Sequence record: PV245934.1
Reading direction: 5' to 3' (one strand)
From: Escherichia phage sutha
DNA length: 64,000 nucleotides
Under the pieces are notes generated by a model. It did no database searches. It was not told the origin of the DNA and worked only from the letters and a program-made list of their open reading frames with translations. A program made the translations under genes and the position numbers. Position 1 is the stretch's first letter, and each line of letters starts with the position of its first letter. This document shows positions 19,902 through 35,853 of this stretch, in pieces.

Positions 19902-19943
19902 GTTGACAAGATTACTATACCATAACCTTGTCAACTTGTAAAC
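19902..19943 (-). promoter_or_regulatory. early promoter embedded in 9-bp inverted repeat
   Basis: gttgacaag ... cttgtcaac arms around the -10; GTTTAC -35. Confidence 0.45.
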
Positions 19944-20108
19944 CGTTAAATGACGTTTTCAATAAAATTCTGGAGTTTTGTGTGAGCATCAACCATGATT
20001 TTCATTTCTTCTTTTGCGAAAGCTGTACCTCTTTCCCGAGCAGAATACTCATAGTCAGAAACTGCATTAGCATATTCTTCAATTAGCTTCATTAAAAACA
20101 TCTGCTTT

Positions 20109-20303
20109 TCAGTTTTCATTATTCCACCTAATCATTTCAAGATATTGAACTAACTTAGCTTTAGATTTATCCAAATCCTTTTTAGCTGCTGCTATACCTT
20201 CGTATGAATATCCTTCACAATGCTCAACTGCCAATTGGTATGAATCTATTTCAACATCACGTACTAATTTAATGATTTTTTCAAACTGTTCGCGTGTCAG
20301 CAT
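20109..20303 (-). CDS. hypothetical protein
   Basis: 64-aa ORF. Confidence 0.35.
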   Translation of the reverse strand: MLTREQFEKIIKLVRDVEIDSYQLAVEHCEGYSYEGIAAAKKDLDKSKAKLVQYLEMIRWNNEN

Positions 20304-20305
20304 AC

Positions 20306-20545
20306 TTAAACTCTCGTATTGTGATCGATAATTTCATCAAGAAACATATCTAACGCTTCTAAAGCATTATCAACTTTAGCTTCAAGTTCTTCAGCGCCTT
20401 TATTTGCAATGCCTGTCGAAAACCAAGCAAAGTCACTAAGTTCCTCGTCTGCTTTGCGAATTAAAGCTACCAATTCTTTAATTTTATCTGCTTGTTCGAT
20501 ACTAATCATTATTCCACCACATATGAAAGAGAGAATATTGCACAC
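20306..20545 (-). CDS. hypothetical protein
   Basis: 79-aa ORF. Confidence 0.35.
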
Positions 20546-20742
20546 GCCATATGAGTTGCAGCTTCATCACACATATCATAACGTTTCTTAAGAAGTTCTA
20601 CAAGTTCTTCACTGGTAACTTCATCCATGTCGACGAAAAAATCACCATTAATGATGACGTAGATATTTCCTTCTTGATTAAGTGCTTCAATTTTCATGAT
20701 GTTCTCCTCTTTATCTGATAGTTGTATAGTATCACAGCTCAA
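20509..20742 (-). CDS. hypothetical protein (track start is TTG inside promoter; ATG at MKIEAL near 20697 more likely)
   Basis: ORF N-terminus is translated from the early-promoter consensus. Confidence 0.35.
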
Positions 20743-20755
20743 ATGGAAAGTAAAC
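20726..20755 (-). promoter_or_regulatory. early promoter
   Basis: GTTTAC, 18 nt, TACTAT. Confidence 0.5.
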
Positions 20756-20765
20756 CGGTAAAATG

Positions 20766-20788
20766 AAAAAAGTCTCCCGAAGGAGACT
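20766..20788 (-). terminator. rho-independent terminator (minus strand)
   Basis: Hairpin agtctcc-cgaa-ggagact followed by U-run. Confidence 0.6.
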
Positions 20789-20792
20789 AATG

Positions 20793-21179
20793 TTATTCGA
20801 GGGAAAGAAGATATTTACTTTGATAAAACATTCCAGTAATATCATCTATCGTACTTTGAATGGCTGGAGGCATTTCTTTGTAAATGCTGTTAGATTGGTC
20901 TAGTATGCGATCAATCATTTTAATTGTGTCGGTAGGAAGTTTACTGGCATCTGGAATAGAAGGTGTGTATTTTCTACCAGAATACCCCAAATATTGCTCA
21001 CCAAATTTATCAATCAAATCTGGCAACTCAGAGAAAATAAAATCGTATGCTTTGTGTCTAGCATAACTTTTAGTTTCAAAATGCGCAGAATGAAAATAAG
21101 CTTGTGCAGCCATTAATAAACCTAAGTATTCATCTGCCTTTGAAGGTTTTCCACTTTGTGAAAAGTCGCTGAATTTCAT
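20793..21179 (-). CDS. hypothetical protein
   Basis: 128-aa ORF followed by hairpin terminator. Confidence 0.45.
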
Positions 21180-21469
21180 TCAGTCTCCAATTTAATGTTC
21201 ATAATTCTAGCGTATGATTGTGCCATCTCCGCGCCTCGCTCTATACATTCAAAATCGGAAGAGCACGGGTCATTTTTATAGGTCGTTCGCATAAAACTAT
21301 AGAACTGTTCAGATGATTCTACGCTTTTATTTTCAAAAAGCATATAAACGTGTCTAATACCAGATTCCATAAATTTATCAAAATGAGGATCGACATTCGC
21401 TTCAATCGGTGGAGATAAAGCAAACGCTAATCCTAGCATGGCAAATAGTGCCGTTGCTTTTAAGGCCAT
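21176..21469 (-). CDS. rI: lysis inhibition regulator RI
   Basis: 97 aa with signal-anchor MALKATALFAMLGLAFALSPPIEANVD...; matches recalled T4 RI and sits next to tk. Confidence 0.85.
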   Translation of the reverse strand: MALKATALFAMLGLAFALSPPIEANVDPHFDKFMESGIRHVYMLFENKSVESSEQFYSFMRTTYKNDPCSSDFECIERGAEMAQSYARIMNIKLETE

Positions 21470-21481
21470 AAAGGCCTCCTA

Positions 21482-21694
21482 TCATTTTTGTCCTGTATTT
21501 ACTTTGTGCCGGTGCACGGCCTTAACTTTATCAAGGTATTTTTCAAAATTTCGCAATCTAGTATAGTCTGCCGGAGATTGGTTGAGTGATACTTCTCGAC
21601 GCAAAGCTGAAATGATATTTCCAACTTCCCTACGAATTTCATCTAATTGAAGAACAGTAAGATTGCGAAGTTGCTTTTCAGTTAATTGTAGCAT
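21482..21694 (-). CDS. hypothetical protein
   Basis: 70-aa ORF between tk and rI. Confidence 0.4.
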
Positions 21695-21736
21695 ATATAC
21701 CCCTTTAGTTAGATAAACCTATTTATAACTTTTGCA

Positions 21737-34257: not shown

Positions 34258-34267
34258 TAAATTAAAT

Positions 34268-34341
34268 TGGAGCGGATAATGAGAATCGAACTCACATCAT
34301 CAGATTGGAAGTCTGAGGTAATGCCATTATACGATATCCGC
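34268..34341 (-). tRNA. tRNA-Gly (anticodon UCC)
   Basis: Anticodon arm TCAGA-CUUCCAA-TCTGA; T-arm GTGAG-TTCGATT-CTCAT; CCA. Confidence 0.8.
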
Positions 34342-34346
34342 AAATT

Positions 34347-34433
34347 TGGTGCGAGAAGTGGGACTCGAACCCACAAGGAAATCATTCCGCAGCATTTTAA
34401 GTGCTGTGCCTTTACCAATTTGACCATTCTCGC
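34347..34433 (-). tRNA. tRNA-Leu (anticodon UAA), long variable arm
   Basis: 87 nt; anticodon arm CAGCA-CUUAAAA-TGCTG; T-arm GTGGG-TTCGAGT-CCCAC; CCA. Confidence 0.8.
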
Positions 34434-34434
34434 G

Positions 34435-34507
34435 CTGGGAATAAAGGACTCGAACCTTTGCATCTAGCAGTCAAAGTGCTATGCCTTACCAACTTGGCTA
34501 ATTCCCA
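34435..34507 (-). tRNA. tRNA-Gln (anticodon UUG)
   Basis: Acceptor TGGGAAT/ATTCCCA, anticodon arm TAGCA-CUUUGAC-TGCTA, T-arm AAAGG-TTCGAGT-CCTTT; CCA not encoded. Confidence 0.8.
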
Positions 34508-34604
34508 ATTATTAACAAAGGCTCTCAAGCAAGAACCCTTGATGATAGAGGGTATTAATCAGTGCGATATGAGTTAATAATAACAAATAATTCTTAAAGC
34601 ATAT

Positions 34605-34898
34605 TTACCATTTATGATAATACATGTTTACGATGCATTCAAGACCCAAAGGATTCTTGAAAATATCATATTCAAGAGGACCTTTTTCTGTTTCAATAAA
34701 GAAATCAAAGTTAACTGTGTTAAATTTACGGTCTTCCTTAACTAATTTAACCTGAGAAGATGAACGGTCAATATAAACCTTTTCAACTTCAAAGTATGTT
34801 AAAATGCCATAATCATCAATCAAGGCTTTAGCCGCGTCTTGATCATATTTATATCCATTTTCAATGGATGATACTTTCGCGTAAAGAATCATTATCAA
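34605..34898 (-). CDS. hypothetical protein
   Basis: 97-aa ORF. Confidence 0.4.
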   Translation of the reverse strand: MIMILYAKVSSIENGYKYDQDAAKALIDDYGILTYFEVEKVYIDRSSSQVKLVKEDRKFNTVNFDFFIETEKGPLEYDIFKNPLGLECIVNMYYHKW

Positions 34899-35314
34899 CC
34901 TTCATCAACAATAGTATGCGTATTGGCATTTACAATTTGCCACCAATCAAAGCGATTAGAACCATACATCAGTTTGTTTTCATTTTCTTTGATAATATCA
35001 CGGAGTTCATCTTCAGTGGCGGCTTTCGCGATTAAATCAGCATATCCACCACGAGGATAATAATTATCACCTGCAAAAAGTAAAAAGTTTGGTTTAATGT
35101 TATTGAACTCTTCAAGAGTAATAACTTTTCCTGACGGTTGAACAATCTCTACATATTTATATCCCAATTTTTGAGCAGCATCTACTGCTTCAAGCAAAGT
35201 ATCATGAGCCCATCCAATTTGACAACCTGGCTTTTCAGATGGATTAGCCTGATAATCCGCATACACTTTGTACATTCTATTCACCTTTAGAAATTTTATC
35301 CATAACGATAGCAA
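34895..35314 (-). CDS. hypothetical protein
   Basis: 139-aa ORF. Confidence 0.45.
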   Translation of the reverse strand: MLSLWIKFLKVNRMYKVYADYQANPSEKPGCQIGWAHDTLLEAVDAAQKLGYKYVEIVQPSGKVITLEEFNNIKPNFLLFAGDNYYPRGGYADLIAKAATEDELRDIIKENENKLMYGSNRFDWWQIVNANTHTIVDEG

Positions 35315-35462
35315 TTAAACCAATTAAAAATGCTACTACAAGTGAAAACACATTTTCTGCTGTAGTTAATAATCCGCATATAAATCCAACAAACATTGAA
35401 AAACTAAAAGCGGAAGCAGAAATTGCAATAGCAACATTTCGAATTAATTCACAACGTTTCAT
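35277..35462 (-). CDS. small membrane protein
   Basis: 61 aa, mostly hydrophobic; palindromic early promoter upstream. Confidence 0.4.
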   Translation of the reverse strand: MKRCELIRNVAIAISASAFSFSMFVGFICGLLTTAENVFSLVVAFLIGLIAIVMDKISKGE

Positions 35463-35481
35463 TTTATTCTCCTCAGTAGTT

Positions 35482-35520
35482 GATAGGGTAATAATATCAC
35501 TACCCTATCTAAAAGTAAAC
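35482..35520 (-). promoter_or_regulatory. early promoter embedded in 9-bp perfect inverted repeat
   Basis: gatagggta ataatatcac taccctatc, then GTTTAC -35. Confidence 0.5.
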
Positions 35521-35793
35521 TCATTTTAAATAAATTGCGTATTTTTTATAGCCACCAGGCTCGTGTCGAAGACCCTTATCATTAGCAAAACGCTCAATGT
35601 TGTTAATTTGATTCTGGTCAAGTTCAGAGATGTCAAACACGAAATAGTTACGTTTGTTACCAACTGTTACATAGTCAGTTAAATCAATACCATATAGGTA
35701 ATTGATGTTATCAATCATAGTCTTGACAGCTTTGCTAATTTTTACTTCTTCATTAAGAGCAGATTCAACGATAAACTCTTTAAATGTTTTCAT
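35521..35793 (-). CDS. head internal protein with capsid targeting sequence (ipI-locus position)
   Basis: N-terminal MKTFKEFIVESA leader; immediately downstream of 57B; palindromic early promoter upstream. Confidence 0.6.
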   Translation of the reverse strand: MKTFKEFIVESALNEEVKISKAVKTMIDNINYLYGIDLTDYVTVGNKRNYFVFDISELDQNQINNIERFANDKGLRHEPGGYKKYAIYLK

Positions 35794-35813
35794 TTTATTT
35801 TCCTAATTAATTT

Positions 35814-35853
35814 TGATGAGGTAATAGTATCACTACCTCATCAGTATGTAAAC
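35814..35853 (-). promoter_or_regulatory. early promoter embedded in 10-bp perfect inverted repeat
   Basis: tgatgaggta atagtatcac tacctcatca, then GTTTAC -35; upstream of ipI-locus gene. Confidence 0.5.

Follow-up and report, generated by a model that had tools for sequence, protein, structure and literature searches.

Introduction

Composite cassettes that join an early promoter to a stem-loop, the promoter-early stem-loop (PeSL) elements, are the closest described relatives of the sites reported here. In the phages RB49 and phi1 the stem-loop of these cassettes lies mostly between the -35 and -10 regions or overlaps the -10; a terminator or attenuator role was proposed, recombination between cassettes was shown, and a single phi1 stem-loop cut downstream lacZ expression like rrnB T1 (Arbiol 2010, PMC2839356). 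PeSLs were extended to the PST/T4 pair with the promoter consensus TTTACW-N17-TAYWAT, and a figure legend of that study places the PST/T4 stem-loops "just upstream" of the promoter (Comeau 2014, PMC4122927). Here, we describe a 64,000-nucleotide stretch of Escherichia phage sutha (sequence record PV245934.1; below called the window, and all coordinates are those of this whole stretch) in which a set of early promoters carries the -10 region within an inverted repeat. These sites are PeSL elements, and their architecture as well as the shuffling of cassettes at such elements has already been published. An earlier, sequence-only reading of this DNA had seen the architecture correctly without recognizing it as the published PeSL element.

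Two further groups of structures are related. Analogous elements at T-even internal protein (IP) loci, based on T4 early promoters, were reported by Repoila 1994, as summarized in Arbiol 2010 (PMC2839356); according to that summary, the stem-loops of the IP loci are weaker, AT-rich and variable in size. In the T4 genes e, soc, 49 and I-TevI, the ribosome-binding site is sequestered by a hairpin that contains a promoter (review PMC3014915). The transcription review Hinton 2010 does not mention hairpins at early promoters, the T4 GenBank record AF158101 annotates no promoter, terminator or stem-loop features, and a literature search for start-site or 3'-end mapping in T4 found nothing usable.

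Early promoters nested in hairpins occur in excess over chance

About a third of the early promoters are nested in a conserved hairpin, and this pattern is non-random and under selection. The window has 15 strict early promoters of the GTTTAC type. In five of them a perfect inverted repeat of 9 bp or more encloses the -10, where 0.165 are expected (binomial P = 4.4e-7), and two others qualify once G·U pairs are allowed. When perfect arms of at least 9 bp with loops of 3-30 nucleotides were counted, the window as a whole held 24 inverted repeats compared with 12.9 +/- 3.4 in dinucleotide shuffles. The comparison set consisted of 95 sources, namely the window, T4, phage 236Ecol005PP and 92 IMG/VR loci for which regB, 57B, tk and nrdC.5 served as anchors. 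It contains 272 unique promoters, and in 87 of these a perfect stem of 8 bp or more spans the -10. A chimera null, in which 5' and 3' halves of different promoters were combined, yielded 7.6, which corresponds to an 11-fold excess. The scan of all early promoters that the sequence-only reading had proposed placed the repeats far above the chance frequency that this reading had named as speaking against it, both in the window and among the relatives.

Bases 34000-38000 share 95-97% identity with many Tequatrovirus (T4-like) genomes, the best match being Escherichia phage 236Ecol005PP. Mapping of T4 proteins identified the window as the T4 early region, from a-gt.3 and gene 55 through genes 1 and 3. 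The early genes occupy the minus strand up to about 38 kb and are followed by late baseplate genes on the plus strand. All reported sites are read on the minus strand because the early region is encoded there.

Two classes of hairpin promoters

The hairpin promoters fall into two classes. In class A (66 unique promoters), a loop of 5-18 nucleotides holds the -10, and the commonest register, found in 18 of 46 representatives, has its centre between the T and the A of TAnnnT. In class B (21 unique promoters), the loop measures 19-29 nucleotides, the 5' arm is an anti-Shine-Dalgarno sequence that directly follows or includes the -35, and the 3' arm is the Shine-Dalgarno (SD) sequence of the next gene, in some cases extending to the AUG. 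The window sites are the following:

35814-35852, minus strand: early promoter with -35 TTTACA at 35852-35847 and -10 TACTAT at 35829-35824
35843-35814, minus strand: class A hairpin, TGATGAGGTA/TACCTCATCA, 10 bp, with the extended -10 in a 10-nucleotide loop, GTGATACTAT
35482-35519, minus strand: early promoter with -35 TTTACT and -10 TATTAT at 35496-35491
35509-35482, minus strand: class A hairpin, GATAGGGTA/TACCCTATC, 9 bp, 10-nucleotide loop GTGATATTAT
31600-31636, minus strand: early promoter with a class A hairpin at 31631-31600, ATAGGCTCAT/ATGAGCCTAT, 10 bp, loop of 12
19901-19942, minus strand: early promoter with -10 TATAGT at 19919-19914, upstream of mobD.2 (ATG 19885)
19936-19901, minus strand: class A hairpin, AGTTGACAAGGTTA/TAATCTTGTCAACT, 13 Watson-Crick pairs and one G·U (10 bp perfect), loop of 8
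16216-16250, minus strand: early promoter upstream of nrdC.10 (ATG 16185)
16242-16216, minus strand: hairpin, AGGGTAGTAGT/ACTATTACCCT, 10 Watson-Crick pairs and one G·U, loop of 5, -10 inside the 3' arm
14755-14808, minus strand: early promoter with a class B hairpin at 14799-14755, CTGTTCCTC/GAGGAACAG, 9 bp, loop of 27
24526-24574, minus strand: regB early promoter with a class B hairpin at 24566-24526, TCCTCTTGACTG/CAGTTAAGAGGA, loop of 17
27551-27589, minus strand: early promoter that follows gene e and has a degenerate stem, AACTGTGA/TCACAATT, 7 of 8 pairs and one C·A mismatch

The four inverted repeats that the sequence-only reading had assigned to GTTTAC-type promoters all exist at the positions it gave and lie on the minus strand, and each is located between the TTTACA/T -35 and about +4 of a promoter of the form GTTTAC(A/T)-N17-TAnnnT. 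Its arm lengths hold at 35482-35509 and 35814-35843; at 19901-19936 the stem is longer than noted, with 14 pairs including the G·U, and the site at 16216-16242, which it had called weaker, is a stem of 11 pairs, one of them G·U. The list was also too short, lacking 31600-31631, 14755-14799 and 24526-24566, and it overlooked that some stems occlude the ribosome-binding site for the next gene.

An SD sequence and the ATG of an open reading frame (ORF) follow within 60 nucleotides of every hairpin promoter, and the promoters mostly have a TGn extended -10 and a G preceding TTTAC. At five window sites the 5' arm begins 6-22 nucleotides past the upstream stop codon. Folded as sense RNA, seven sites reach -16 to -25 kcal/mol (z -2.5 to -5.5), and the eighth, at promoter 27589, is degenerate. 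The hairpin at 35814-35843 (-17.4 kcal/mol, z -4.0; antisense -13.7) starts 22 nucleotides past the 57B stop and precedes an IP-like ORF at 35793-35521 (MKTFKEFIVESA...); the same element is found unchanged in T4, upstream of ipI. Eleven nucleotides past the stop of this ORF begins the hairpin at 35482-35509 (-16.4 kcal/mol, z -2.5), upstream of trna.4 (ATG 35462). The stem at 31600-31631 (-18.8 kcal/mol, z -5.5) lies 6 nucleotides past the e.8 stop and upstream of a 176-residue ORF that replaces T4 e.7. At 19901-19936 (-21.3 kcal/mol, z -4.7; antisense -14.0), T4 has a perfect 14-bp stem, and relatives with AGTTGGCAAG have the G·U pair. The fold at 16216-16242 has -17.8 kcal/mol (z -3.2; antisense -14.7). 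In the four sites of the sequence-only reading and at 31600-31631, which make up class A in the window, the stem ends 8-20 nucleotides 5' of a free SD.

Class B is represented in the window by nrdC.8 and regB. At 14755-14799 (-25.4 kcal/mol, z -4.9) the 3' arm is the nrdC.8 SD (ATG 14751) and the hairpin begins 12 nucleotides past the nrdC.9 stop. At 24526-24566 (-23.1 kcal/mol, z -5.3; antisense -13.0) the stem of 11 Watson-Crick pairs and one G·U begins 11 nucleotides past the vs.3 stop, and its 3' arm covers the regB SD, AAGAGGA (ATG 24518). Pairing of an SD within the helix is confined to class B, that is, to 14755-14799 (through GAGGAACAG), 24526-24566 and 21 unique promoters in relatives. 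The degenerate site at 27551-27589, upstream of an IP-like ORF (MKTYKEFIAESA...), folds with just -5 kcal/mol (z -0.1), and its T4 counterpart is a perfect 8-bp stem.

Two side observations touch these loci. Both IP-type ORFs, 35521-35793 and 27206-27523 on the minus strand, carry the conserved IP leader (MKTFKEFIVESA... and MKTYKEFIAESA..., respectively); the former stands in place of T4 ipI, and a tblastn comparison with T4 IpI gave no match at E <1e-5. Upstream of gene 55, at 1254-1288, an 8-bp inverted repeat (ATAGATCT/AGATCTAT, loop of 19) surrounds an extended -10-like sequence, TGATATAAT; this may be a further case of a promoter within a hairpin, the promoter belonging to a type other than GTTTAC.

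The arms covary

The arms of the hairpins differ widely in sequence and nevertheless remain complementary, as the sequence-only reading had noted in arguing for selection on structure. That argument gained support on three counts. The 87 hairpin promoters have 58 distinct 5'-arm sequences. When 148 representative promoters were aligned without selection and without gaps, the covariation score for one fixed register was 0.225, compared with 0.177 +/- 0.007 in shuffles (0 of 500 reached the observed value) and 0.13-0.145 when the partner was slid. At orthologous sites both arms change together: downstream of e.8 the compensatory arm pairs are ACAGGCTCAT/ATGAGCCTGT, ATAGGCTCAT/ATGAGCCTAT and ATGGGCTCAT/ATGAGCCCAT, and upstream of trna.4 we found AGGGTTAT/ATAACCCT versus AGGGCTAT/ATAGCCCT. 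The T4 trna.4 promoter has its 5' arm shifted within the spacer (ATAGGGT, loop of 18), and some phages carry at this site a wholly different, SD-occluding class B stem instead.

Start-site geometry and strand asymmetry

Transcription start sites were predicted from standard sigma-70 geometry, 7 nucleotides after the -10. With this placement the 5' arm lies upstream of +1 in all 87 hairpin promoters. In 48 of 66 class A promoters the predicted +1 falls within the 3' arm, and in all 21 class B promoters it precedes the entire 3' arm. The hairpin should therefore form only in RNA that reads through from upstream and not in the RNA of the nested promoter.

Three further features distinguish the strands or the context of the sites. 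Among stems with at least nine other Watson-Crick pairs, a single mismatch is G·T or T·G in 13 distinct arm pairs and A·C or C·A in 2, counts that ignore shared ancestry and reflect about 12 independent G·U events; in the chimera null the same count is balanced, with 16 G·T-type and 13 A·C-type mismatches. At four window sites the sense RNA is 3-10 kcal/mol more stable than the antisense RNA, and among the 46 representatives the sense fold is the more stable one in 32 and the less stable one in 13 (Wilcoxon p = 0.001); the difference is about zero in promoters without a hairpin and in shuffles. Finally, 2 of 33 promoters with a canonical terminator at most 90 nucleotides upstream have a hairpin, as opposed to 85 of the other 239 (Fisher p = 3e-4; this count likewise ignores shared ancestry and comprises about 10 independent terminator sites). 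Rarity behind terminators would follow if the hairpin had a role only in the presence of read-through. Together, the G·U bias, the greater stability of the sense fold and this rarity suggest, but do not settle, a role as sense-strand RNA.

The hairpins lack U-tracts

A terminator scan of the window called none of the hairpins that span a -10, and a T-run follows none of them on either strand. The sequences that flank them on the 3' side are rich in A (AAAATTAATT, AACTACTGAGG, AATTTGAGG and others). Two canonical intrinsic terminators were detected in front of early promoters:

16761-16780, minus strand: canonical intrinsic terminator with a GC stem, UUCG loop and T-run, 32 nucleotides upstream of promoter 16729
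20771-20788, minus strand: canonical intrinsic terminator (AGTCTCCTTCGGGAGACT plus T-run, UUCG tetraloop), 17 nucleotides upstream of promoter 20754

Promoters 16729 and 20754 are the sole strict promoters of the window behind such terminators, and neither has a hairpin spanning its -10. Because a U-tract is lacking, the class A stems are not canonical terminators, and an intrinsic-terminator reading of these stems was rejected on the ground that no T-run follows them on either strand. Terminators for antisense (plus-strand) transcription were likewise rejected: on the plus strand the T-run comes before the stem, and folding is weaker for the antisense RNA.

Independently of the promoters, two 35-nucleotide terminator-like copies (AGCCCCGACCGAAAGGTTGGGGCT plus T-run, minus strand) were noticed between e.8 and the tRNA cluster, at 32105-32139 and 32662-32696. 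They are 97% identical and lie 557 bp apart, and a small RNA or a mobile segment could be situated between them.

Promoter cores bound variable cassettes

The largest families of dispersed direct repeats in the early region (D1-D9) are all promoter cores. Shared AT-rich upstream repeats form families D6 and D8, and the 25 nucleotides upstream of the 15 window promoters are modestly enriched in A+T (73% versus 65% in the window overall). Gene content changes at these cores. One cassette is absent from T4:

16250-16729, minus strand: two-ORF cassette of about 480 bp between nrdC.11 and nrdC.10

Promoters 16729 and 16250 border this cassette, and its indel junction lies in the shared ...TACTAT...CTATCAA core. 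It encodes an ORF of 49 residues (16664-16515) together with another ORF that overlaps it. The IP-type ORF that differs from T4 ipI is located between promoters 35852 and 35519, and e.7 is replaced downstream of promoter 31636. Some hairpin sites precede conserved genes, namely regB, trna.4 and nrdC.8.

Among relatives, some elements are chimeras whose 5' and 3' arms come from different types. In 236Ecol005PP (PP434423, L001 in our set, locus at about 21903, minus strand), the 5' arm GATAGGGTA of the trna.4 type is joined to the 3' arm TATCTCATC of the ipI type. Its stem is weakened and not abolished (6 Watson-Crick pairs, 2 G·U pairs and one A·C mismatch), and the arrangement is consistent with a crossover inside the -10 loop. 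As a separate observation, a 27-nucleotide segment comprising the -35 and upstream element (TGTAAACAACTTTGTGAAATTATTTTA, plus strand) is 100% identical at 3037-3063 and 35847-35873, 32.8 kb apart. It links the promoters of 55.6 and the ipI locus and suggests a recent gene conversion or cassette transfer.

Other features of the window

Ten tRNA genes lie at 33555-34507 on the minus strand (Arg, Asn, Tyr, Met, Thr, Ser, Pro, Gly, Leu and Gln), and a scan of the window with Rfam covariance models at the gathering score found these ten and no other family. T4 has eight tRNA genes; Asn, Tyr and Met are present in the window and Ile is absent. No segB homolog was found within the tRNA cluster of the window. 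A SegB-like fragment (GIY-YIG, 41% identity) is located between nrdG and nrdD (5091-5339, minus strand) and an HNH MobB/C/D-like ORF (33-50% identity) in the late-gene region (57140-57499, plus strand). Both are probably homing-endonuclease insertions, placed differently from those of T4.

Discussion

The anatomy of the elements, their non-randomness, the covariation of their arms, the strand asymmetry and the cassette indels at promoter cores are established by the present analysis. Our preferred reading, to which we give about an even chance, is that the sites are composites of the PeSL type in which a strong sigma-70 early promoter is built into a stem-loop that would act as sense-strand RNA. 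A transcript from the nested promoter would lack the 5' arm and be unstructured, while a read-through transcript would fold a hairpin of 9-16 bp right after the stop codon of the upstream gene. The hairpin could in this way mark RNAs by their start point and insulate neighbouring early cistrons. For class B (nrdC.8, regB), the SD would be held in the 3' arm and the read-through RNA would be translationally silent, so that the gene would be expressed from its own promoter alone, by the same logic as in the T4 e, soc, 49 and I-TevI hairpins. For class A, the most likely function would be that of a protected 3' boundary of the upstream message, a barrier to 3'-exonucleases after cleavage by RegB or RNase E, possibly combined with weak attenuation. 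As a side effect, the repeated promoter cores would provide dispersed homology for the exchange of gene cassettes.

Several points weigh against the sense-strand RNA reading. Two thirds of the early promoters have no hairpin. Some hairpins are degenerate (27551-27574) or, in relatives, chimeric, and the structure is therefore dispensable at individual sites. A sense DNA strand that folds as single-stranded DNA would give the same G·T asymmetry, and the shared ancestry behind the G·U and terminator counts counts here as well. The position of the start site, the folding of the RNA in vivo and every functional consequence are inferred, and the protection of 3' ends by class A is conjecture drawn from sequence.

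The alternatives differ in how they meet the same evidence. The published PeSL interpretation, in which the stem-loop is a terminator or attenuator that stops polymerase arriving from upstream and leaves the cassette to be transcribed from its own promoter alone, agrees with the location of the hairpins directly past the upstream stop codon and with their rarity where a canonical terminator exists, as redundancy predicts. It can also draw on the phi1 experiment, in which a PeSL stem-loop placed between promoter and lacZ gave a reduction comparable to that by rrnB T1 (Arbiol 2010, PMC2839356). However, that assay cannot tell whether termination or an effect on RNA decay or translation is responsible, and the stems tested were of the G4/C4 kind, unlike the AT-rich stems of the window. 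In the window no T-run follows any hairpin and the 3' flanks are A-rich, although the scan detects genuine terminators nearby; the lack of U-tracts argues against simple termination in T-even phages. Class B, moreover, targets the SD, which fits translation and not termination. We regard the terminator reading as unlikely. A purely DNA-level role in recombination, with the inverted repeat extruded as a hairpin or cruciform that the T4 recombination machinery (e.g. endonuclease VII) would target and the promoter as a passenger, seems to us rather improbable. It would account for cassette indels and replacements bounded by promoter elements, for the chimeric arm combinations in relatives, for promoter cores being the main dispersed repeats and for the RB49/phi1 PeSL mini-circles with crossovers in or beside the loop. 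Yet homologous exchange needs a direct-repeat core and not an inverted repeat with site-specific arms, and 58 different arms lower the homology between sites. Neither the preference for G·U over A·C nor the greater stability of the sense fold would be expected for a duplex or cruciform, the SD targeting of class B and the rarity behind terminators have no rationale at the level of DNA, and loops of 8-29 nucleotides disfavour cruciform extrusion according to established cruciform energetics.

An effect of the DNA on the promoter itself, whereby self-complementary spacer and initially transcribed DNA would modulate melting, strength, responsiveness to Alt or early shut-off, has little to recommend it beyond the centring of the repeat exactly on the -10 in most class A sites and the fact that reviews call promoter-specific stimulation by Alt and the shut-off of early promoters unexplained. 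From the established structure of RNA polymerase, the open bubble extends from -11 to +2; it excludes the 5' arm, hence the open complex offers no opportunity for pairing within a strand. In class B, the arms can be as much as 50 bp apart and finish in an SD, the strand asymmetry speaks against such an effect, and two thirds of equally good promoters manage without the repeat. The sequence-only reading had offered a dimeric DNA-binding site and a hairpin in read-through transcripts side by side, and the two fared differently. A binding site for a dimeric, sequence-specific protein is hardly credible: dyad symmetry over the -10 is the classic position of a repressor operator, but the 58 distinct 5' arms share no half-site, stems (8-16 bp), loops (5-29 nucleotides) and register all vary, both arms change together at orthologous sites, and G·T wobble positions are tolerated. 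A common dimeric operator is ruled out by this diversity. The read-through hairpin, by comparison, is favoured by the position of the 5' arm upstream of the predicted +1 in 87 of 87 cases and by the G·U bias (13 versus 2), and also by the better folding of the sense strand and the rarity behind canonical terminators. That the repeats are chance products of AT-rich intergenic DNA has next to no probability. The window does hold 67 perfect inverted repeats of 8 bp or more, and many lie within genes, but the enrichment at its promoters (P = 4e-7), the 11-fold excess over the chimera null among relatives and a covariation above that of shuffled and slid controls refute a chance origin.

If the sense-strand RNA reading is right, only promoter-proximal transcripts would be fully functional in a large share of T-even early genes, which would bear on the separation of immediate-early from delayed-early expression in T4 and on the bounds and decay of early mRNAs. 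A bolder version holds that the hairpins are a general transcript-origin switch for about a third of the T-even early genes, class B silencing the translation of read-through RNA and class A being read by a structure-specific host or phage factor (as a nuclease barrier, pause or insulator). We would not expect this version to prove correct. Were it true, it would help to explain why early-gene expression collapses when the promoters are shut off despite continuing read-through and middle transcription, it would carry the e/soc/49/I-TevI mechanism beyond a few late genes to an entire class of promoters, and it would define a new type of intercistronic insulator that is not a terminator. PeSL cassettes are joints where phages can swap genes for host range and anti-defence (internal proteins, ORFans) with one another, and the cassettes matter for phage evolution and for the engineering of T4-like therapeutic phages.

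Comparison with known systems

REP (repetitive extragenic palindromic) elements, as between malE and malF, and the RNase III sites of the T7 early region are, like the window hairpins, stable intercistronic stem-loops of a polycistronic RNA, and such stem-loops can define and protect the 3' ends left by processing. Co-location with a promoter is no feature of these systems, and the window stems are too short for RNase III. Canonical T4 intrinsic terminators resemble the window hairpins in lying between an upstream stop codon and the next early promoter. The window hairpins differ from them in having no U-tract, in their AT-rich stems and in overlapping the promoter, and the two almost never coincide.

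With the T4 e, soc, 49 and I-TevI hairpins, class B shares a helix whose 5' strand lies upstream of the nested start, an arrangement in which long transcripts are silent and promoter-proximal ones are translated. In those genes, however, the nested promoter is late (TATAAATA) or middle and control is temporal, whereas the nested promoter in the window is early, and class A stems do not touch the SD at all. The translational hairpin of gene e is itself present in the window, at 28075-28140 on the minus strand, where two TATAAATA late boxes lie in the stem that pairs the lysozyme SD (-16.2 kcal/mol, z -4.0). The IP-locus repeats have their counterparts at 35482-35509 and 35814-35843, which flank the IP-type gene in the ipI locus; as summarized, the published description is confined to IP loci, and the window adds promoters of nrdC, mobD, regB and e.8.

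The agreement is closest with the PeSL elements. In both, an AT-rich upstream region is combined with an early promoter of the sigma-70 type (17-bp spacer), a stem-loop, and an SD with ATG, and both are repeated across hyperplastic early regions next to indels and gene replacements. The window promoters fit the PST/T4 consensus TTTACW-N17-TAYWAT, and their stems of 9-14 bp lie over the -10. The RB49/phi1 elements differ in their G4...C4-rich stems and near-perfect TTGACA/TATAAT promoters, the window stems being AT-rich with site-specific arms, and the stems that span the -10 here contrast with those placed upstream of the promoter in the legend of Comeau 2014. The PeSL papers stress termination and recombination; an SD-occluding class, strand asymmetry and exclusivity with terminators do not appear in them. 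What is new here is accordingly modest and consists of the split into stems with the -10 in the loop and stems that occlude the SD, the asymmetry in G·U pairs and strand stability, the near-exclusivity with terminators and the lack of U-tracts.

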